Positions 21,596 through 43,320 of a stretch of DNA of 64,000 nt are shown here, one piece after another. Location: the IMG/VR virus record IMGVR_UViG_3300045049_000286, positions 43,981 to 107,980 of that record, one strand, 5' to 3'. Position 1 is the first letter of the stretch. The number at the start of each line of letters is the position of its first letter. Made by a program: the position numbers and the translations under genes. The DNA is from a virus. The notes below the pieces were generated by a model. It worked only from the letters and a program-made list of their open reading frames with translations. It was not told the origin of the DNA and searched no databases.

Positions 21596-21901
21596 GTGAG
21601 CACGACACCGTTGTTGCCGCATGTCCACGAGCTGATGGCCCGTACGGAGCGGCCTGGGACGTACGAGCCGTCCTCGGCGGGCATGGCGCACGTGGCGGAG
21701 ACTCAGGAGGCGTACCACGAGACGCCGGAGGAGGTGCGGCTGTTGCTGCAGGGTGGCGCGATTGAGGCCCTGCGGCACGGGTTCTACGGCGCCGCGCACG
21801 TGTTGGTGACCGAGTTGGCGCTCGGGGAGCCGCAGTGGCGTGACTGGCTGGCGGTGGCGGCGGCGCGGGATTTCGTGACCGCGCTGCGGGATGTCGCGTA
21901 A
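21596..21901 (+). CDS. hypothetical protein
   Basis: GAGGGGG RBS before GTG. Confidence 0.7.
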   Translation: MSTTPLLPHVHELMARTERPGTYEPSSAGMAHVAETQEAYHETPEEVRLLLQGGAIEALRHGFYGAAHVLVTELALGEPQWRDWLAVAAARDFVTALRDVA

Positions 21902-34071: not shown

Positions 34072-35145
34072 TCAGGGGGCCTGGGTGCGCCAGTCGGGTC
34101 CGAAGATGTTGGGGTGGACGCCGGTGGTGAGCAGGTTGGCGGTGTTGTAGTACTTCATGGTCATGCGTGGGTCTTCGTGGCCGACGTAGCGGGAGAGGCG
34201 GTGGATGGTCAGGACGTCTCCGGGCTGGGTCAGGCCCAGGGTGATGAAGGTGTCGCGGGCCATGTAAGGGTTGACGAGTTCGCCGGCGGCGGGCTGGATG
34301 CCGGCGGCTTCGCCGAGGCGGTAGAAGAGCCGGCGGATGCCGGAGGTGTCGAGGGCGTTCTGTTCGAGTTCCCCGGTGTCCTTGTTACGGATCTTGCGGC
34401 CGAGGAGGAACGGCCCGCTCGTGCGGCCGGCGAGGCAGCGGTCCAGGATCGGGTAGAGCTTGTAGCCGAGGTCGATGGTCTGCCAGTAGCCGCCGCCTTT
34501 CTTGACGCGCATGAGCTTGAGGGTGCGAATCTTCCCGCCGGCGCGGGTGCCGAGGTTCTCCACGCGGGCGAGGTGCATTTCCTCGGGGCGCATTCCAGTT
34601 CCGAGGAGCATGGCGACGCACAGTTCGCTGCGCGGGTGGTCGTCGCGGGCGGCCTCGTACAGGCTCCAGTACTCGTGGGGCTGGAAGATGTCCTTCGCGC
34701 CGATCTCGGCCGCGCTGCCGCGTGGCTTACGTCCGCGCTGCTTGGGGACGGGGTTGAACTGGACGAACTCGCGGTGGCGTTCGGTGAGGTAGTCGTAGAA
34801 CTGGGAGATCGCGGTGCGGGCGTGGTCCTTGTTCTCCTTGCCGTACGGGAGGCGTTCGCATTCCTCGACACAGGGTCCGGGGTGGTGGGTCCAGTGGTTG
34901 GAGGAGAGGTACTCCAGGTGCTGGTCGATGTCGTCCGGGCTGGCGTCGTAGGGGTGGAGCATGGGCCAGCGGTCGAGCCAGGCGACGTAGATTCGCAGGT
35001 GGCGGCGGTACACGCGGGCGGTCTCGGGGCTGTAGTCCTTGGTGAAGGCCGCGATCAGCTCGTGGGCTTCGGTGCGCTGGCCGGGAATGCGGATGCGTCG
35101 GGTGGCCCACGTCGGCCTGTACTCAGGACTCTGAGTGGTCGTCAT
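34072..35145 (-). CDS. tyrosine recombinase (XerC/D or integrase family)
   Basis: TGMRPEE, K, PYMARDTF, VGH.DPRMTMKYY; TACGAT 7 nt before ATG 35145 suggests leaderless start. Confidence 0.88.
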   Translation of the reverse strand: MTTTQSPEYRPTWATRRIRIPGQRTEAHELIAAFTKDYSPETARVYRRHLRIYVAWLDRWPMLHPYDASPDDIDQHLEYLSSNHWTHHPGPCVEECERLPYGKENKDHARTAISQFYDYLTERHREFVQFNPVPKQRGRKPRGSAAEIGAKDIFQPHEYWSLYEAARDDHPRSELCVAMLLGTGMRPEEMHLARVENLGTRAGGKIRTLKLMRVKKGGGYWQTIDLGYKLYPILDRCLAGRTSGPFLLGRKIRNKDTGELEQNALDTSGIRRLFYRLGEAAGIQPAAGELVNPYMARDTFITLGLTQPGDVLTIHRLSRYVGHEDPRMTMKYYNTANLLTTGVHPNIFGPDWRTQAP

Positions 35146-35212
35146 GTGCTCCATCGTAGCCTATGACGCACGACTTTTGCTGGTGTCCCAGCAGGTTGGT
35201 GAATATCCGCCA

Positions 35213-35241: not shown

Positions 35242-36729
35242 ATGGGGAGCACCGAACAGGCCGAGCGCAAGGCCCTCATCACCGACATCGTCGAGAAGGT
35301 CCTCATGGTGGTCGACGAGCTGTCAGGTCACCCATTGCGCCCGTATCAGAGGCCGTTCGCCGCACGGGTGATCGAGTCGCTGATCGTCGAGGACAGCGCC
35401 AAGATCACCGCCCTGTGGAGCCGGCAGTCCGGCAAGTCGGAGACAGTGGCCAACACCATCGCCGGATGCATGATCATGCTGCCCCGCCTCGCGAAGCTCT
35501 TCCCCGACATGCTGGACAAGTTCCGCGAGGGCCTGTGGGTGGGCGTCTTCGCCCCCACCGACGAGATGAGCGAGACCCTCTTCTCCCGCGTCGCCTCGCG
35601 CCTCACCTCCGACCGGGCCATGGAGATCTACGCCGACCCCGAGATCGACGAGAAGCTCGAAGGACGCGGCAAGGTCATCAAGATGAAGCGCTGCGGGTCG
35701 CTGGTGCGTAAGCAAACCGCGCACCCGAAGGCGGCCATCGAAGGCCAGACCTACCACATCGTGTTCATCGACGAGTGTCAGCAGGCGGACGAGAAAGTCG
35801 TCAACAAGTCCATCGCGCCGATGCTCACCGCGACCGCCGGCACGATGTGCATGACCGGCACGCCGACGTATCACAAGAGCGTCTTCTACGAGCAGATCAA
35901 GCTGAACAAGCGCAAGGCCATCAACACCCCGAACTCGGACCATTTCGAGGTCGCGTGGAAGGAAGTGGCCAAGCACTACCCGCGTTACGGCAAGTTCGTC
36001 CGCAGTGAGATGGACCGATTGGGCGAAGACAGTGACGAGTTCAAGTTGAGCTACCGCCTGGTGTGGATGCTCGACAAGGGAATGCTCGTCACCTCCGACC
36101 GGTTCGAGGCCCTCGGCGACACGTCCATGAAGACAGTGCCCGAGTTCCACAAGTCCCCCGTCATCGTCGGCATCGACCCCGCCCGCAAGACGGACTCCAC
36201 CGTGGTCACCGTCGTGTGGGTCAACTGGGACTACGCCGACGAATTCGGCCACTTCGAGCACCGCGTCCTCAACTGGCTCGACCTCACCGGCATGCACTGG
36301 GAAGAGCAGTACTTCCGGATCGTTGAGTTCCTCTCCCACTACAACGTCCACGCCATCGGCATCGACGCCGGCGGCCTCGGCGACGTCGTCTCCCAGCGCC
36401 TGCGCGTCCTCATGCCGTACGCCGACATACGCGACCTCAAGTCCGATCGCGGAGCCCAGACAAAGCGTTGGGGCCACATGATGGACCTCATGTCCAAGGG
36501 TCTTCTCGTGTGGCCGGCACACGCCAAGACCCGGCAGACCCGCAACTGGAAGAAGTTCCGCGCGCAGATGGAGGACGCGGAACTCAACTACGTGGGCCCG
36601 CACATCATCGTCGCCGCCCCGCAGGTCGACTCCGCGCACGACGACTACGTCGACTCCCTTTCCAACGCACTGTGGCTGACGGCCGAACTGCAGATGCCGA
36701 CCGCCGAGATCATCAACACTCCATGGTGA
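35242..36729 (+). CDS. terL: terminase large subunit
   Basis: RPYQ, Walker A SRQSGKS, Walker B VFIDE, TGT, nuclease GIDPA...D...HDDYVDS. Confidence 0.95.
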   Translation: MGSTEQAERKALITDIVEKVLMVVDELSGHPLRPYQRPFAARVIESLIVEDSAKITALWSRQSGKSETVANTIAGCMIMLPRLAKLFPDMLDKFREGLWVGVFAPTDEMSETLFSRVASRLTSDRAMEIYADPEIDEKLEGRGKVIKMKRCGSLVRKQTAHPKAAIEGQTYHIVFIDECQQADEKVVNKSIAPMLTATAGTMCMTGTPTYHKSVFYEQIKLNKRKAINTPNSDHFEVAWKEVAKHYPRYGKFVRSEMDRLGEDSDEFKLSYRLVWMLDKGMLVTSDRFEALGDTSMKTVPEFHKSPVIVGIDPARKTDSTVVTVVWVNWDYADEFGHFEHRVLNWLDLTGMHWEEQYFRIVEFLSHYNVHAIGIDAGGLGDVVSQRLRVLMPYADIRDLKSDRGAQTKRWGHMMDLMSKGLLVWPAHAKTRQTRNWKKFRAQMEDAELNYVGPHIIVAAPQVDSAHDDYVDSLSNALWLTAELQMPTAEIINTPW

Positions 36730-36797
36730 TTATCCGGCCCGAAATGCCGCTTCCTACGGTCCCGGTTCAAGACGTCTTGAACAGGAGGCCAACCCAC

Positions 36798-37193
36798 ATG
36801 GCCACATCCCCCCTCGCTCCGGACCCGGAGTTCCGCGAGAGCGCGGACCGCTTCTACGAGACGAAGACCGGCAACAACACCGCCCGCCGAGGCCCCCTGC
36901 GCTTCCAGGAAGGCTTGGGAAGCGACACCGATGTGCCGTCGGAGTTCGCGCGGGGCGCCATGCAGGGCTACGTCACCCCGCCCGGCCGCGCCAACCACAA
37001 CATGAACGTCTTCGAGAAGCCCCCGGCGGAGACCATGCGCGAGCGCGCCCACGTCGGCTCCGCCTCGTGGCCCGAGGCTCCCACCTACCTGTCCGAGTAC
37101 GCCGCCGGCGCCTCCGAGGCCGAGCAGAAGTACCTGCAGGTCGACCGGGGCGAGGGCCACCACAACCGCCACAACTACGCCCGGGTGGACTGA
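36798..37193 (+). CDS. conserved phage protein between terminase and portal
   Basis: AGGAGG RBS; RRGPLRFQEG...RERAHVGSASW. Confidence 0.85.
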   Translation: MATSPLAPDPEFRESADRFYETKTGNNTARRGPLRFQEGLGSDTDVPSEFARGAMQGYVTPPGRANHNMNVFEKPPAETMRERAHVGSASWPEAPTYLSEYAAGASEAEQKYLQVDRGEGHHNRHNYARVD

Positions 37194-37195
37194 GC

Positions 37196-37939
37196 ATGCC
37201 GGGTACGCCCACCCCGTTCGCAGGTCTCCCCCAGCCAGCCGAGGGAGACCTGCCGGACGTGCCGCACGACATCGGGGCCCTGGCTACCCGCGTAGACACC
37301 GTCCTCGCGCTGCTGTGCCAGAACACCTCCGGTTCGCCGGCAACGATGCCGACCACGGCGCAGAACCTGCTCGGTGTCGGCCCCTCGATCTCCTCCCTGC
37401 AGTCCACCCAGTCCACCCAGGCAGGGCAGATCACCACCCTGCAGGGCCAGGTCTCCACGCTGCAGACCAACACCGCGATCCTCGCGAACACCCCCCAGGT
37501 CAAGCAGCACCAGCCAAGCAGCAGCGTCACCGTAGCCAGTACCGGCATCATCAACGTGGACAACGTCACCCTGCCCACGGCCTCCTACAAGCGGCTGATG
37601 ATCTGCAACATCACCGTCCAGGCCGGCTGGACCGACTACGCCACCAAGACCCCGCTGTCGCTCCAGGTCTACGGCAACATCAACAGCCAGCCGATCTCCT
37701 TGCCAGCCATCGGCGGCCCCAGCGTGCCCGTCCAGGCCATCCAGACCAGCTTCATGTGCACCGTGCCCGCCGGGAACTCGACCTCGGACTACGTCCAATA
37801 CAACGTCCAGGTCGACCCCTACACCACGCCCCCGTCCGGGAAGTCGTTCCAGAGCTTCACCGGCCCCGGCGGAAGCCTCCTGCAGATGATCTTCATCCCC
37901 TGGAGCAACGGCCCCGACCTGATCATGCCGCACTACTGA
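37196..37939 (+). CDS. putative virion fibre-like protein
   Basis: DLPDVPHDIGALA N-terminus, heptad segment, beta-rich C-domain. Confidence 0.7.
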   Translation: MPGTPTPFAGLPQPAEGDLPDVPHDIGALATRVDTVLALLCQNTSGSPATMPTTAQNLLGVGPSISSLQSTQSTQAGQITTLQGQVSTLQTNTAILANTPQVKQHQPSSSVTVASTGIINVDNVTLPTASYKRLMICNITVQAGWTDYATKTPLSLQVYGNINSQPISLPAIGGPSVPVQAIQTSFMCTVPAGNSTSDYVQYNVQVDPYTTPPSGKSFQSFTGPGGSLLQMIFIPWSNGPDLIMPHY

Positions 37940-37975
37940 GCCGTCGCATTCGGAACCAGGAAGGGAGGTGATGCC

Positions 37976-39700
37976 ATGTCGATCGCCTTTGTCTCGCCGA
38001 GCATGAGGGCCGCCGCAAGCGACCTCACCGTCTCCGTCAGCCCCCTCGGGCTGGTGGAACTCGCAGACGAGGAGTTCGAGTTAGGTAGGTACACGGACCA
38101 CGCCTGACCCGCTACGCTAACCACTGGGCGTTCTACCTCGGCTACCACTGGGCCTACAAGCGTGAGGCCGGCGAGCCGAACATCACCGTGAACTACACCG
38201 GCGCCCTGTCCCGGTACATAACGAACTTCACCTTCGGACGCGGCGTCAACTTCATGTCCGACAAGAAGTTCGAGCACATCATCCCTGCCCTCCTCGACCG
38301 CGCCTGGACCGTCGACAACGACAAGAAGTCCACGCTGTGGCAGATGGGCGAGAACGGCTCCGTCGCGGGCGACTGCTTCGTCAAGATTGCCTACGAAGCC
38401 CCCTGGCAAGACCCGGCAGGAGGTGATCACCCCGGACGAGTGAGGATTCTGCCGCTGAACGCGGCGCAGTGCTTCCCTGAGTACCACCCCCACGACCGGG
38501 ACCGATTACCGCCTCCTCCGGTTCAAGCTCAAGTACAAGTTCTGGGGGACGAGCCTCGAAGGCACCCGCCAGGTGTACACCTACACCGAGATCATCACCG
38601 ACGAGTACATCGAGGAGTACGTCAACGACGAACTGCTCGACGCCCGTGACAACCCCCTCGGCGCCATCCCGATCGTACACATCCGCAACATCTCCATCTC
38701 CGGCTCGCCGTGGGGACTCGCGGACATCGTCGACCTCATCCCGCTGAACCGAGAGTTCAACGAAAAGGCGACCGAGATATCGGACATCGTCAACTACCAT
38801 GCCGCCCCGCTGACCATCGTCACCGGCGCCAAAGTTTCACAGCTTGAGCGCGGCGCCAAGAAGGTCATCGGGGGCCTCCCGAAAGACGCCAACGTCTTCA
38901 ACCTGGAGAACGGCGTCGACCTCAACGGGCCTCTCGCCTACCTCGACCTCATCAAGAGGGCGATGCACGAGCTGACCGGCGTCCCCGAGACCGCACTCGG
39001 CATGGCACAGCCGATCTCCAACACCTCCGGGGTGGCTCTCCAAATCCAGTTCCTGCCGCTCATGAACCGGTACGAACTCAAGAAGGTCAACTACACCCTC
39101 GGCCTCAAGCGCATCAACGAACTGATCCTGCGCACGCTCTTCCTCTACGAGCCGAACACCCTGCGCTACGACCCCGACTCCCAGGGCATGAAGACGCAGG
39201 ACGACCAGCCCGACGTCCTCGACCCAGCCGACCCGGCCGTCTACAACGTCGACATCGACTGGCCGCCACCGCTGCCCATCGACCAGCTCGTCAAGCTCAA
39301 CGAGATCCAGGCCAAGCTCGCCCTCGGCCTGGAATCCAAGCGCGGCGCGCTCCGCGAACTCGGCGTCGAGTTCGTCGACGAGAAGATGTCCGAGATCTTC
39401 GACGAGCAACTGCGCGAGGCGAAGGAGGAAGGCGCGCTCGAACTTATTCGGGCGGAAATAACCTCTGCCATCCTCCAGGCCACCGGGGTTACTCCTGACG
39501 GAGAAACTCCGACACCTGCTGCGAGCGCCACCGGCGCCTCTTCTGGAGGCAGTGCCGGCACGGAAGGCGCAGGACCCCTTCCCGGTCTCCCCGGAGTCGG
39601 GGGGACAACGGACACACAGTCGATGCTGAACGAACTCACGACCCTGTCCAAGGGCACCAAACTCGCCCAGTACAGGAATCCGGACAAAAACTCGGACTGA
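37976..39700 (+). CDS. portal protein in three segments (37976-38080, 38089-38505, 38513-39700; 569 aa joined) separated by two TTA-initiated gaps
   Basis: GGAGG RBS at ATG 37976; joined reading SPLGLVELADEEFE|VHGPRLTRY...HPHDRDR|LLRFKLKYKFWG; portal-like IPIVHIRN...WGLADI and SNTSGVAL; lies between terL and scaffold. Confidence 0.88.
38078..38091 (+). other. candidate translational bypass site 1 (GAG / TTAGGTAG / GTA)
   Basis: 8-nt gap begins with in-frame TTA and ends with TAG (2/3 match to take-off GAG). Confidence 0.7.
38503..38515 (+). other. candidate translational bypass site 2 (CGA / TTACCGC / CTC)
   Basis: 7-nt gap begins with in-frame TTA and ends with CGC, read by the same tRNA-Arg(ICG) as take-off CGA. 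Confidence 0.75.
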
Positions 39701-39722
39701 AACCCACGTCTAAGGAAAGCAA

Positions 39723-40553
39723 GTGGAACCCCAGAGCACTGAGACCCAGCCGCCGGCCACGTTCACCGCGACCAGCATCCCCACCACCGCATGGAACGGC
39801 GGACCGACCCTCGGCACCGCCACCAGCACCGCACCCCAGACCTTCACGGCACAGGACATGGAACGGGCCCGCCAGGAGGAGAAGGAGAAGCTCTACGGCC
39901 GCCTCACCAAGGCCGAAGAGCGCGCCGCAGCGGTGGAGCAGGAGATGGCCCGCTGGAAGGCCGAGGCCGACCAGCGCGAAGCCGAGCGACAGGCCAAGCT
40001 CAACGAGAAGGCCCAGCGCAAGCAGGCCAAGCTCGCCGAGAAGGCCGAGCGCGACCGCGCCGCCGCCGAGGCCGACATGAGCGCCCGCCAGCTCCTCGCG
40101 GAGCGAACCCGGGAGTTCGAGGAGCGCTTCCAGTCCATGGAGGCGCGCCAGGCCGCCGAGAAGGCCGCGCTGGCGAAGGAGGCCGAGTTCAACCGACTCA
40201 GCGCCTACATCCAGCAGCGGATCAACCAGGAGGCGGGCAGCATCGCCCCCCAGCTCATCGACCTGATCTCCGGCGACACGCAGGAGGAAGTCGACCGCTC
40301 CATCGAGCTGATGAAGGCCAAGACCGCCGAGATCGTGCAGTCCGTCGCCAACGGACAGGCGCAGAACCGCGCACAGCTTCGGGGAACCGCGCCCACGGGC
40401 TTCACCGCGAACGGGCCAGTGGACTCCGAGAACAACTCCCAGCAGCTCACCGCCGAGCAGATCGCAGCGATGCCCATGCGGGAATTCGCTCGATACCGGG
40501 GTCAGCTCCTGGGGGCTGCGTCGAGGTCCGGCAATCGCGGGCTCTTCGACTAA
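39723..40553 (+). CDS. capsid scaffolding protein
   Basis: Coiled coil, ARQEEKEKLY, directly upstream of capsid gene. Confidence 0.85.
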   Translation: MEPQSTETQPPATFTATSIPTTAWNGGPTLGTATSTAPQTFTAQDMERARQEEKEKLYGRLTKAEERAAAVEQEMARWKAEADQREAERQAKLNEKAQRKQAKLAEKAERDRAAAEADMSARQLLAERTREFEERFQSMEARQAAEKAALAKEAEFNRLSAYIQQRINQEAGSIAPQLIDLISGDTQEEVDRSIELMKAKTAEIVQSVANGQAQNRAQLRGTAPTGFTANGPVDSENNSQQLTAEQIAAMPMREFARYRGQLLGAASRSGNRGLFD

Positions 40554-40583
40554 GACCCATCACCCAGAGAAAGGCTGCCGCAC

Positions 40584-42013
40584 ATGGCATCCGGAATCAC
40601 GGGGACTCCGCTTCTGTCCCCGACCCCGACGGCGTACACCGCGTCGTCCTCGTCGATGCTCACGCCGGCGATCCAGACCATCTGGTCCAAGGAGATCCTC
40701 AAGGGTTAAGGGGACCTCGTGCGGTGACGTACGAGTAAACACCACGCTGTATCGGTGAACCCCTCCAAGAGCACGTCAGGGGAATACCGAGGGAACCCTC
40801 ACCGGGGACTCCGTAGAGACTACACGCGAGGCATCTCCAACGAGGCCGGCCGAACGGTGACGTAGGTCGGGGACTCACACGGACTGGGAGATGAAGATAT
40901 AGTCCGGTCTGCACTCGATGGCAAAGGTGCAGAGCCAGGCAGAAATGACCTGGCCCCAACTGATCGGCTTGGGTAACAAACCGCTTCCAGGCAATGCCGA
41001 TCCTGCGGTTCGAGCAGTTCATGGTCAAGAAGACCGAACTCGGAACCGCGCCCGGCCTGTCCGTGAACTTCATGAGGTATCGGGCGCTCGATGGGGCTCA
41101 GCAGCTCGTCGAGGGCGTCCGCATGGAGACCCACGCGCTGACGGCCGAGCAGATCACCATCACGGTCGCCGAGCAGGGCTTCGCGGTCGCCGTGACGGAG
41201 CTTCTCCTCAACTCCAGCTTCGACGACGTGATGGCGAGCGCAGCCCGCCTCCTGGGCCGCAACATGGCCACCTACCTCGACGGGCAGTGCCGCGACACCC
41301 TCCTGGGTGCCCCGTCGGTGCTCTACGGCTACGACAAGCTCGCGTCGTGGGCGGCCGGCGAGACCCGCACTCCTCTGTCCCCGTACGACCGTGGCATGTT
41401 CGCCGACTCCGAGGCGACCATGACCACGAACGGCGGCTTCTACTTCACGGCGGCGCTCGTCAAGGACGCCGTAGAAACTTTGGCCACGAAGAATGTCCCG
41501 CGACTCGGCGAGACGTACGTGGCCTTCGTGCACCCACACCAGAGCCGCCGCCTTCGTGACGACCCGGAGTTCATCGAGGTCACCAAGTACGCGGCGCCCG
41601 GCAATTTCATGCTGGGTGAGATCGGCCGGCTCAACGACGTCGTCTTCATCGAGACGACCCAGGTGTTCCAGGGCACGTTCAACCCGCCGCCGCCCACCAC
41701 CCAGCTCGGCACGACCATTCCGGTCGGCAACAGCCAGGTGTGGCAGGGGCAGCCTGCGCGGACGGCTTCCGGTTCGATTCCGGCGATTCCTGCGGTGACG
41801 CAGGTTCCGTCGAACCCGAACGCCCCGACCAACTCCATCTACCGCGCTCTCGTCATCGGCGACAACGCGGCCGGCCACGCGATTTCGCTGCCGGTGGAGC
41901 TGCGCGATGGCGGCGTGCTCGACTTCGGCCGTGAGCACGCGCTGGCGTGGTACTCGATCTGGGGCCTCGGCCTCATCACGGACTACGCCGTCGTGCAGTG
42001 CGCGACGAACTGA
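40584..42013 (+). CDS. major capsid protein, two exons (40584-40699 and 40984-42013; 381 aa spliced)
   Basis: AAAGG RBS; spliced IQTIWSKEIL|FQAMPILRFEQF; N4-gp56-like motifs YVAFVHP, GEIGRL..V.FIET, DFGR...AWY. Confidence 0.92.
40700..40983 (+). mobile_element. group I self-splicing intron, 284 nt, no homing endonuclease ORF
   Basis: 5' exon ends in U with U-G in P1 (UCCUC/GGGGA 40710-14), terminal G 40983, P2 with GUGA loop, P4 UCGGU/ACCGA, R AGAGACUAC 40815-23, S AAGAUAUAGUCC 40894-905, P8 CAUCUCC/GGAGAUG, three P9 hairpins. Confidence 0.93.
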
Positions 42014-42030
42014 TTCGGGTACAAATTCGT

Positions 42031-42056
42031 GGGGCGCAGACTCCGCTCTGCGCCCC
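42031..42056 (+). terminator. hairpin after capsid gene
   Basis: GGGGCGCAGA-CTCCGC-TCTGCGCCCC. Confidence 0.55.
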
Positions 42057-42081
42057 GCCCCCAATTCGCTAGGAGAAACAG

Positions 42082-42480
42082 ATGGTCGCGTCTCCGCGTT
42101 CCAAGCCCAACCCGAAGGACTTCACCGGCAACCGCAAGCGCATCCTCGCCGAGCAGCACCGTGAGGAGCTGCTGGAGAAGCAGGCTCAGCTCTCCATGCG
42201 GACGCAGGTGATGCAGGAGAACCTGGACACGCCGATCGACGTGCTGACAGGTCTTCCCGTGGAGGGCGCCGCGTCGGCGCCGGTCGACGGTGACGACGAC
42301 GTGGCCACGCCGGTGTACGTGGCTCCCGAGTTCGCGACCATCCGCGTCGCGTGCGACCTGGAGAAAGTGACGATCGGCCAGGGGAAGGTCTACGAGTTCC
42401 GGGAGGGCCAGGTCTACCGGGTGCCGTACAACGTGGCGGTTCACCTGTGGAACCTGGGATACGTCTGGCAGTGGCTCTAA
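42082..42480 (+). CDS. hypothetical head-module protein
   Basis: AGGAG RBS; YEFREGQVYRVP..VA.HL...GYVW. Confidence 0.8.
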   Translation: MVASPRSKPNPKDFTGNRKRILAEQHREELLEKQAQLSMRTQVMQENLDTPIDVLTGLPVEGAASAPVDGDDDVATPVYVAPEFATIRVACDLEKVTIGQGKVYEFREGQVYRVPYNVAVHLWNLGYVWQWL

Positions 42481-42493
42481 GGGAGGCAGTGCC

Positions 42494-42847
42494 GTGGCGC
42501 GTGCGCCGAAGTCCCTCAAGGACGTGGACAAGCAGCCCGTGGTCGGCGGCTGGTACCGGCTGCTGGAGCCGATCGGCTCTGGGCCCGGTCACCTGTCGGT
42601 GACGCATTTCGCCGGCGAGGAGGAGCGGGAGCGGCACGTTCAGGTCGTCGCCATCCCCGAGCCAGGGACGGCCGGCACCGGGCGCGTGTCGGAGGCGTCG
42701 CCGCTGGTGCGCTGGTTCCAGCACACCCCCGAGGGCGTCTGTGAGCACATCTCGCAGGTGCCGATGGAGATGTTCCGTGCGCGGGTAGCGCCTGGCCAGG
42801 AGCCGCCTGAGCACGAGGTCGTCGAGGCCCGTAAGAGAGGTGCCTGA
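42494..42847 (+). CDS. hypothetical protein
   Basis: GGAGG RBS. Confidence 0.75.
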   Translation: MARAPKSLKDVDKQPVVGGWYRLLEPIGSGPGHLSVTHFAGEEERERHVQVVAIPEPGTAGTGRVSEASPLVRWFQHTPEGVCEHISQVPMEMFRARVAPGQEPPEHEVVEARKRGA

Positions 42848-43320
42848 TGTCGGGGTTCATCGCGATGCAGGGCTGCCTGTCGGACCTGTCCTATCTGGTG
42901 GGGCAGTCCACGCCGCTGGCTGCGGAGTGGGCGGCCAAGACGGCGGCCGGCGATCCCAACCCCATGACGACCTACCTGATGCTGCTGTCGGCCGCGCCGA
43001 CGGACTCAGGCAGTGACATGGGCACCTTGGCGGGGATCGAGGTCACCGGCACCGGGTACGCGCGGCAGCCGGTGTCGTGGGCGTCGCCGGTGTCGACGAC
43101 CCGGTCGATCGCGAACGGGCTGCTGACGCAGTTCGGGCCGTTCACGGACGCGAGCGGGTTGAACCTGCCCGTGATGGGGGCGGCGCTGGTAACCCGGGCG
43201 ACCGGAACCTCCGGCATCTCGCTGATGCTGTGGAGTTTGGCCAGTGGTTTGACCACTGCACAAAACCAGGTCCTGCAGGTCGCGGCCGGCAACCTGGTGA
43301 TGACTCTCGCGACGAGCTGA
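42847..43320 (+). CDS. virion structural protein
   Basis: YLMLLSAAP...EVTGTGYARQPVSW...AAGNL motif typical of small phage structural proteins. Confidence 0.75.
   Translation: MSGFIAMQGCLSDLSYLVGQSTPLAAEWAAKTAAGDPNPMTTYLMLLSAAPTDSGSDMGTLAGIEVTGTGYARQPVSWASPVSTTRSIANGLLTQFGPFTDASGLNLPVMGAALVTRATGTSGISLMLWSLASGLTTAQNQVLQVAAGNLVMTLATS

Follow-up and report, generated by a model that had tools for sequence, protein, structure and literature searches.

The window analyzed here is a 64,000-nucleotide (nt) stretch forming the last 64 kb of the virus record IMGVR_UViG_3300045049_000286, a single record of 107,980 bp with direct terminal repeats that is rated 100% complete. Its portal gene is broken into three segments by two short inserts. 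Reading from the sequence, we suggest with a probability of roughly 65% that the first break (site 1) is a UUA-triggered translational bypass of 8 nt, the first of two that would be needed to make one portal protein of 569 amino acids (aa). This proposal starts from the anatomy of the gene, its colinearity with intact relatives, a design of the inserts that is found across the family, and selection acting on all three segments, each of which was observed directly.

Structure of the interrupted portal gene

The elements of the gene are as follows.

37976-38080, + strand: portal segment 1, an ATG plus 34 codons in the list of open reading frames (ORFs), the last being the take-off codon GAG (38078-38080); it aligns to residues 1-36 of intact portals
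38069-38074, + strand: Shine-Dalgarno (SD)-like GAGGAG, two Glu codons, ending 3 nt before the take-off codon
38081-38083, + strand: in-frame TTA (UUA), directly 3' of GAG, a putative slow codon for the ribosomal aminoacyl (A) site
38081-38088, + strand: the 8 extra bases of site 1, namely the gap TTAGG (38081-38085) and the putative landing triplet TAG (38086-38088), missing in intact relatives
38089-38505, + strand: portal segment 2, 139 codons, of which the first is the resume codon GTA and the last the take-off codon CGA (38503-38505), covering SPP1_portal positions 13-133
38105-38107, + strand: TGA, the end of the zero frame under normal decoding of TTA, giving a 43-aa product
38506-38512, + strand: the 7-base insert of site 2, consisting of TTA, C, and the putative landing triplet CGC (38510-38512), cognate to the CGA at take-off
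38513-39700, + strand: portal segment 3, 395 codons plus a stop (39698-39700), covering SPP1_portal positions 148-415 (phrog_64, E=3e-28)

The sequence-only reading of this stretch had given the bases of 38069-38107 as GAG GAG TTC GAG-TTAGG-TAG-GTA CAC GGA, and they were found to be exactly so on re-reading. The frame opened by ATG 37976 closes after 43 codons at TGA 38105-38107, and this first frame is used again from 38513. The joined segments match the SPP1-type portal (PF05133 / phrog_64) by profile and are about 61% identical to the uninterrupted portals of the Streptomyces phages Alone3, BRock, and pSt2308, those of Alone3 and BRock being annotated as portals. Alignment to these three places break 1 between ...LVELADEEFE and HGPRL..., where the window has 11 bases and each of the three phages has one codon, a net gain of 8; intact relatives read E-V/M-H at this position. 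Break 2 lies between ...HPHDRDR and LLRFKLKY..., where the window reads CGA-TTAC-CGC-CTC, with a net gain of 7. A 7-nt hop at this second site (38503-38515) would join two Arg codons that can be read by one transfer RNA (tRNA), tRNA-Arg(ICG).

Deletion of 38081-38088 together with 38506-38512 gives one open portal frame of 569 codons, which is colinear with intact portals and has no added residue. Besides the two cassettes, these 569 codons are free of lesions. The hop-corrected junction of site 1, ...LVELADEEFE-VHGPRL..., has the same length and sequence as in two uninterrupted relatives (L012 and L146) and in hop-corrected ones. It had been argued earlier that a -1 slip ahead of the TAG could not rescue the protein, and this holds, because TAG 38086-38088 lies in the downstream frame and that frame can be entered only from 38089. 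Taking off at GAG, skipping TTAGG and TAG, and resuming at GTA, as had also been proposed, appears from the sequence to be the only reading that would give the EEFE-VHGPRL of the relatives.

Selection on the three segments was estimated by the Nei-Gojobori method between the window and nine relatives. The ratio of nonsynonymous to synonymous substitution rates (dN/dS) was 0.005-0.155 for the 35 codons upstream of site 1 (with dS about 1 or saturated), 0.07-0.19 between sites 1 and 2, and 0.18-0.25 downstream of site 2. All three portal segments are under purifying selection. The low upstream ratio argues that the first 35 codons are translated within a constrained protein. It also contradicts a scenario that had been set against the bypass, in which the portal would start at GTG 38188 and leave those codons unused, since the 35 upstream codons are constrained and the second break falls well inside the conserved domain.

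In Streptomyces-type hosts, no codon is rarer than UUA. On the + strand of the phage genome (107,980 bp), 71 TTA triplets occur, compared with about 445 expected from base composition, and in-frame TTA occurs at about 0.25 per 1,000 codons. Despite this rarity, TTA directly follows the last in-frame codon at both portal breaks, which suggests that the arrangement at site 1 is more than chance. The hop-corrected portal of the window contains zero TTA codons, and the only other TTA codons in ten coding sequences of the clade are those of an in-frame cassette shared by three relatives (described below) and one ordinary TTA in L012. A genome-wide scan for frame-breaking TTA cassettes found none besides those of the portal.

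A sequence resembling the site 2 cassette, CGG-TTAC-CGC, was seen at genome position 38718 (38700-38740), 5.2 kb before the window. It was considered as a bypass and rejected: it is located close to the 3' end of a 197-codon, Cys-rich ORF, and the downstream frame is not convincingly coding. In-frame TTA also occurs in long open frames at window positions 21899 (- strand, CCC TTA CGC) and 19863 (+ strand, GCC TTA CCG GCG), where no frame is broken; these are probably ordinary codons dependent on bldA, the gene of the UUA-reading tRNA.

Insert variants in related portals

We compared 145 related loci (80 viral contigs, 57 metagenome contigs, and 8 genome contigs), detecting breaks by a frame-aware comparison and a start-anchored ORF check. 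The N-terminal region of the portal is interrupted in roughly a quarter of them; about 28 variants of the insert were counted, spread over at least 12 codon positions of this gene. The variants are written below as take-off codon-skipped bases-landing triplet-next codon. The codon that would stand in the A site is TTA in 13 of the 28 variants, a stop in 6, AGA, ATA, or CTA in 7, and another codon in 2. The take-off tRNA would find a cognate landing triplet in 16 of the 28, against 3.6% expected (binomial tail <2e-9, although the tallied variants are not all independent of one another), and in 24 the landing triplet shares at least two of three positions with the take-off codon. Among the 12 variants with a non-cognate landing, eight have a mismatch at the first position, including TGG to AGG in four sequence variants that are spread over several branches of the tree. 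A stop would serve as landing triplet at site 1 (TAG) and in one other variant (TGA, in L096).

Three relatives are interrupted at the same junction as site 1, with GAA-TTACC-GAA-GTC (L009), GAA-TTAT-GAA-GTT (L011), and GAA-TAAGT-GCA-GTC (L014), and two others (L008 and L144) carry GAG-TTACC-GAG-GAA three codons upstream of this position. The site 2 cassette of the window is identical in L009. Elsewhere in the family we found CTT-TTAC-CTC, TAT-T-TAC, CAC-TTAG-CAC, CAA-TTACG-CAG, TTT-ATAGG-TTC, and GCT-TA-GCC, as well as TGG-AGACCCTA-AGG and a version of it that is two bases longer. Some inserts keep the frame and contain stops (TGG-TAG-TGG, TTC-TAGCGG-TTC, and TGG-ATATAA-AGG). The hop lengths range from 2 to 13 nt across the variants, and all three residue classes modulo 3 are represented. 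Where take-off and landing codons are synonymous but not identical (TAT to TAC, CTT to CTC, CGA to CGC, TTT to TTC, GCT to GCC, and CAA to CAG), the change is always from weaker to stronger third-position pairing, that is, from NNT or NNA to NNC or NNG. After correction, the portals of the window and of every corrected close relative form one open frame of 566-576 codons that reads ...LVELADEEFEVHGPRL... as in the uninterrupted L012 and L146.

At codon 41, three relatives (L007, L010, and L013) carry an in-frame 6-nt cassette, CGA-TTA-CGC, which would contribute Leu-Arg under standard decoding but no residue under a hop; inserts of this design thus also occur where the frame is unchanged. One interrupted portal (L144:1055-1150) belongs to a prophage in the chromosome of a cultured organism, Streptomyces sp. 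HMX87 (NZ_JBKKQY010000001.1). Its two cassettes, GAG-TTACC-GAG and CAC-TTAG-CAC (8+7 nt), were overlooked by a frame-based tblastn screen, their summed length being a multiple of 3.

The cassettes turn over rapidly. On a tree of the C-terminal, uninterrupted part, near-identical portals differ in their cassettes: L012 has none, L011 one, L009 two, and L144 two others, and L074 carries a cassette that L081 lacks although their C-terminal parts are identical. In total, at least 14 changes of cassette state were counted on this tree.

Proposed mechanism

That a hop takes place, where it lands, how efficient it is, and what it serves are all inferences, for which we envisage the following course. 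Translation would initiate at ATG 37976 and bring codon 35, GAG (38078-38080), into the peptidyl (P) site and UUA (38081-38083) into the A site. With the bldA tRNA poorly functional during vegetative growth and no tRNA genes on the phage, the A site would stay empty. The peptidyl-tRNA-Glu would then release GAG, the messenger RNA (mRNA) would slide by 8 nt, and the anticodon would re-pair with UAG (38086-38088) through the second and third positions. Release factors do not read a stop triplet in the P site, and UAG would sit there, so that its identity as a stop would have no effect. Decoding would restart at GUA (38089) to give ...EEFE-VHGPRL..., and the hop predicts a tryptic junction peptide ending ...LVELADEEFEVHGPR. 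If UUA were read as Leu instead, termination would follow 8 codons on and a 43-aa peptide would be released. The hop at site 1 is possibly inefficient. As for its purpose, it might gate or throttle portal synthesis according to the tRNA state of the host, or it might allow the phage to tolerate an insert that protects against a homing endonuclease.

UUA is read solely by the developmentally regulated bldA tRNA (PMC10732093). ARAGORN found zero tRNA genes in the window or in the 108-kb genome, and a phage-encoded tRNA-Leu(UAA) is therefore not involved. The lytic relative Alone3, whose portal is intact, has about 30 tRNA genes, with none for UUA among the annotated ones. The clade with interrupted portals includes prophages, and the window phage encodes an integrase.

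A wider proposal is that the N-terminal motifs of the portal are a hot-spot of rapidly gained and lost bypass cassettes, each made of a slow codon and a repeat of the take-off codon with 0-10 bases between them, and that site 1 lands by two-of-three pairing on a stop triplet. Such cassettes might do more than repair a leaky reading. They might act as an inverse bldA switch, by which virions would be made only without functional tRNA-Leu(UAA), or they might reflect repeated disruption of a homing-endonuclease target, like that of T4 gene 60 and mobE. We offer this proposal tentatively and regard it as possible but rather doubtful. If it were true, a factor other than cognate re-pairing, such as the distance from GAGGAG or a local hairpin, would set the landing point of site 1.

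Possible signals around site 1 and alternative explanations

The SD-like element to which the sequence-only reading drew attention is indeed present just upstream of site 1 (38069-38074). The duplex of GAGGAG with the anti-SD sequence is predicted at -8.2 kcal/mol, compared with a background mean of -2.75. It encodes part of a conserved Asp-Glu-Glu and is present in intact relatives, so it is not specific to the insert; most other cassettes show only background anti-SD complementarity. An SD spacing of 3 nt is reported to stimulate forward shifts (PMC5009743).

Several points weigh against a bypass at site 1. As a landing triplet, TAG agrees with GAG at positions 2 and 3 only and is thus non-cognate, which makes site 1 the poorest take-off/landing match of the four variants at the EEFE^V junction (the caret marks the break). 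The take-off pairing is strong at site 1, with GAG where relatives have GAA, and an identical TAG at +4 after the take-off codon would lead into a dead frame. Folding of both sites and of three relatives gave no significant or conserved RNA structure: the z-scores were -0.8 (site 1) and +0.2 (site 2) in 45-nt windows and -0.2 and +1.2 in 80-nt windows, and a hairpin starting from the last base of GAG (-11.7 kcal/mol, z -0.8) is not conserved. Two relatives (L113 and L125) have +4 inserts without a rare A-site codon, which slightly weakens the tally of variants; these inserts may be +1 frameshifts or errors. The phage is known from an uncultured metagenome genome, and the hop is predicted from its sequence. 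The host, and hence its bldA status, is judged only from G+C content, the rarity of TTA, and the Streptomyces relatives. In addition, pairwise dN/dS is blind to a very recent inactivation in the window's own lineage. Given its weak points, site 1 may be inefficient or recently damaged.

Damage is the core of one alternative, in which site 1 is a decayed cassette whose landing triplet has changed from GAG to TAG, with the portal lost and the genome defective or helper dependent. TAG is one substitution away from GAG and thus from a perfect GAG-TTAGG-GAG cassette. The quality of the match, the lowest at its junction, fits this explanation, an uncultured genome with an integrase could persist as a prophage, and a very recent loss would escape pairwise dN/dS. 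However, there is no lesion in the 569 codons apart from the cassettes, and the genome is complete, with terminal repeats and a depth of 26.7. A landing with two of three matches is also found in 9 other variants, and TGG to AGG is carried by four sequence variants across several branches of the tree. Minimal P-site pairing can reportedly be enough for landing, as is said to have been found by Herr et al. in 2004 (J Biol Chem). We consider decay of site 1 unlikely.

A second alternative is that UUA is decoded as Leu and that a -1 or +2 slip follows between 38087 and 38104, giving a portal with 1-3 extra or altered residues (EEFELGRVHGPR or EEFELHGPR). The routes would be a slip of tRNA-Arg from AGG back onto TAG or a hop of tRNA-Leu from TTA to GTA. 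The net 8 nt are equivalent to -1, which makes a frameshift formally possible, and the zero frame stays open for 8 codons past TTA; the authors of the work on the terminase of Streptomyces phage phiHau3 likewise could not at first exclude +1 frameshifting (PMC10732093). Against this stand the lack of any slippery heptamer (X XXY YYZ) in 38069-38107 and the invariance of EEFEVHGPRL in relatives, which makes it unlikely that extra residues are tolerated. Furthermore, insert length varies by 1-2 nt within a junction, with 8 or 7 nt at EEFE^V and 9, 11, or 13 nt at WAW^Y, and in-frame inserts hold stops. No single direction of shift fits these lengths, and a fixed +1 or -1 frameshift could not deal with all of them; landing on the triplet that comes just ahead of the resume codon would suit every one. 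The enrichment of cognate landing triplets would also have no role in a frameshift. Such a slip at site 1 is thus quite unlikely. Compensating indels were considered as well and rejected: relatives with a single insert stay out of frame, its shift not being a multiple of 3.

It is very unlikely that the gene is split into separate polypeptides made by re-initiation, for example at GTG 38188 and GTG 38573: both lie in the correct frames of the ORF list but would drop 33 and 20 strongly conserved codons, the breaks of relatives fall at many positions and are not followed by a conserved start codon or ribosome-binding site, and the cognate landing triplets would be left without explanation.

It is extremely improbable that sequencing or assembly errors created the insert or that it belongs to a minority variant, although the genome is a metagenome assembly and the comparison was made on contigs rather than raw reads (those of X3 and X4, at 2x depth, do not cover 38053-38097 at site 1): an independent Logan assembly of the probable source run has a 107,868-bp contig (depth 26.7) without any difference over 37800-39000, errors do not typically take the form of an 8-nt non-homopolymer insert, and the same design occurs in dozens of independent contigs and in isolate genomes.

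Endonuclease genes and gene neighborhood

In seven distinct cassette-bearing relatives, a gene of the Endonuclease_7 family (PF02945) ends 21-69 nt before the portal start, and among the insert-free loci just one carries a gene of this family, with its end 12 nt ahead of the portal (the loci are L033, L049, L061, L082, L091, L131, L148, and L151). These genes are probably free-standing homing endonucleases. The association with inserts has a Fisher p of 2.5e-4; in phylogenetically independent pairs (n=6) it is not significant (p about 0.38). The link recalls, by analogy, the cassette of T4 gene 60 and mobE and may serve as a lead only. No Endonuclease_7 or HNH match was found near the portal of the window, and the upstream ORFs of 290 and 241 aa have no Pfam match and occur in relatives both with and without inserts.

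The genome has a G+C content of 67.7% and comes from a soil or rhizosphere metagenome; the phage is uncultured, and its closest relatives include prophages in Streptomyces genomes. The neighbors of the portal gene are as follows.

34072-35154, - strand: tyrosine integrase
35242-36729, + strand: large terminase, intact
after the terminase and upstream of the portal, + strand: 290-aa ORF of unknown function
40584-42013, + strand: major capsid gene, after the portal, split by a group I intron

In the capsid gene, residues 4-41 of the Alone3 capsid map to 40584-40700 and residues 42-343 to 40985-42010. The intervening insert of about 284 nt (about 40701-40984) is overlapped by a match to the group I intron model RF00028 at 40687-40932 (41.6 bits, E=3.7e-8, under the gathering score of 50). 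An Rfam scan of 36000-43000 found only this intron in the capsid gene and no match at the bypass sites. When the ORFs of Alone3 were compared with the whole genome, 90 matched, and only two of them, those for portal and capsid, had a counterpart broken over more than one frame.

Comparison with known systems

Obligatory bypassing is known in few natural genes: T4 gene 60 and its homologues, the byps of yeast mitochondria, and the terminases of three Streptomyces phages or prophages, which received experimental support in 2023. Our literature search found no report of bypassing in portal genes. Gene callers split or truncate portals such as the one described here, so that essential genes end up in catalogues of phages and prophages wrongly labelled as pseudogenes or fragments.

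As in T4 gene 60, the proposed hop takes off next to a slow A-site codon, re-pairs downstream, and makes one protein from two frames. The insert of gene 60 is linked to the neighboring homing endonuclease mobE, and Endonuclease_7 genes lie upstream of the portal in several relatives of the window. However, in gene 60 the ribosome skips 50 nt from one GGA codon to a matching one, and the system includes a UAG stop, a stem-loop at take-off, and a signal in the nascent peptide, whereas site 1 would skip 8 nt from GAG to TAG, with a sense TTA after the take-off codon, no significant structure, and no endonuclease beside the portal. Nor can the portal inserts share a common nascent peptide, as their sites differ.

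Weiss et al. in 1987 and Gallant and Lindsley in 1998 reportedly described low-level hops of Escherichia coli ribosomes over stop or 'hungry' codons, engineered or spontaneous. The portal hops would resemble these in being forward hops of a few nucleotides to a matching codon at a slow A-site codon, and the TGG-TAG-TGG (+6) of the relatives has that very geometry. In contrast to such inefficient events, the portal hop would be obligatory for an essential gene and maintained by selection. Site 1 also resembles the +1 frameshift of release factor 2 (RF2, prfB), where an SD-like element precedes the shift codon by 3 nt and the A-site codon is slow, but RF2 shifts by one base on CUU U, whereas site 1 needs 8 nt and its SD-like element is imposed by conserved Glu codons.

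The portal inserts are reminiscent of the mitochondrial byps of Magnusiomyces capitatus as well, with many short scattered inserts and landing by two-out-of-three pairing (PMC5009743), and fast turnover is seen in the portal relatives too. The byps are 27-55 nt long, derive from GC clusters, and are handled by mitochondrial translation, whereas the portal inserts are 2-13 nt long and would be handled by bacterial ribosomes.

UUA-mediated bypassing, the nearest parallel in the literature, has been described for the large terminases of phiHau3 (g6/g7/g8), StrepC.1, and an S. catenulae prophage (Smith et al. 2013; Antonov et al. 2023, PMC10732093), whose genes have UUA-led gaps of 10 nt and 7 nt (PMC10732093). 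For this system, a full-length product was found in S. coelicolor and a junction peptide was identified by mass spectrometry in E. coli with UAA replacing UUA; a +1-frame stop inside the gap caused no loss of product, and for the phiHau3 terminase an invariant junction without room for extra residues was also taken to argue for the hop (PMC10732093). In addition, a UUA near the overlap of gp50/51 of phage Bxb1 has been suggested as a bypass candidate (PMC12646305).

The portal of the window shares with the phiHau3 terminase an essential assembly or packaging gene of a temperate high-GC actinophage that is broken by short non-coding blocks. In both, the blocks start with an in-frame UUA after the take-off codon, two serial hops would be made, an SD-like element lies 5' of the gap, that of site 1 being set by conserved Glu codons, and removal of the blocks restores a conserved junction with zero extra residues. 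If the link between UUA and bldA is true, the portal would be a second structural gene by which temperate actinophages sense the developmental state of the host. Site 1 nevertheless appears to differ from published UUA bypasses in the gene concerned (the terminase of the window is intact), in its shorter gaps (8 and 7 nt rather than the 10 and 10 nt of phiHau3), and in its near-cognate landing on a stop triplet, the landing at site 2 (CGA to CGC) being cognate. With 8 nt instead of 10, the frame change at site 1 is opposite in sense to that of phiHau3. Finally, the terminase system comprises 3 of 100 ter genes, whereas the portal family has about 28 variants, including some led by stops, AGA, ATA, or CTA. 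These dozens of natural variants, which differ in take-off codon, slow codon, gap (2-13 nt), and landing triplet, amount to a mutational series for the rules of short hops, near-cognate landings included.

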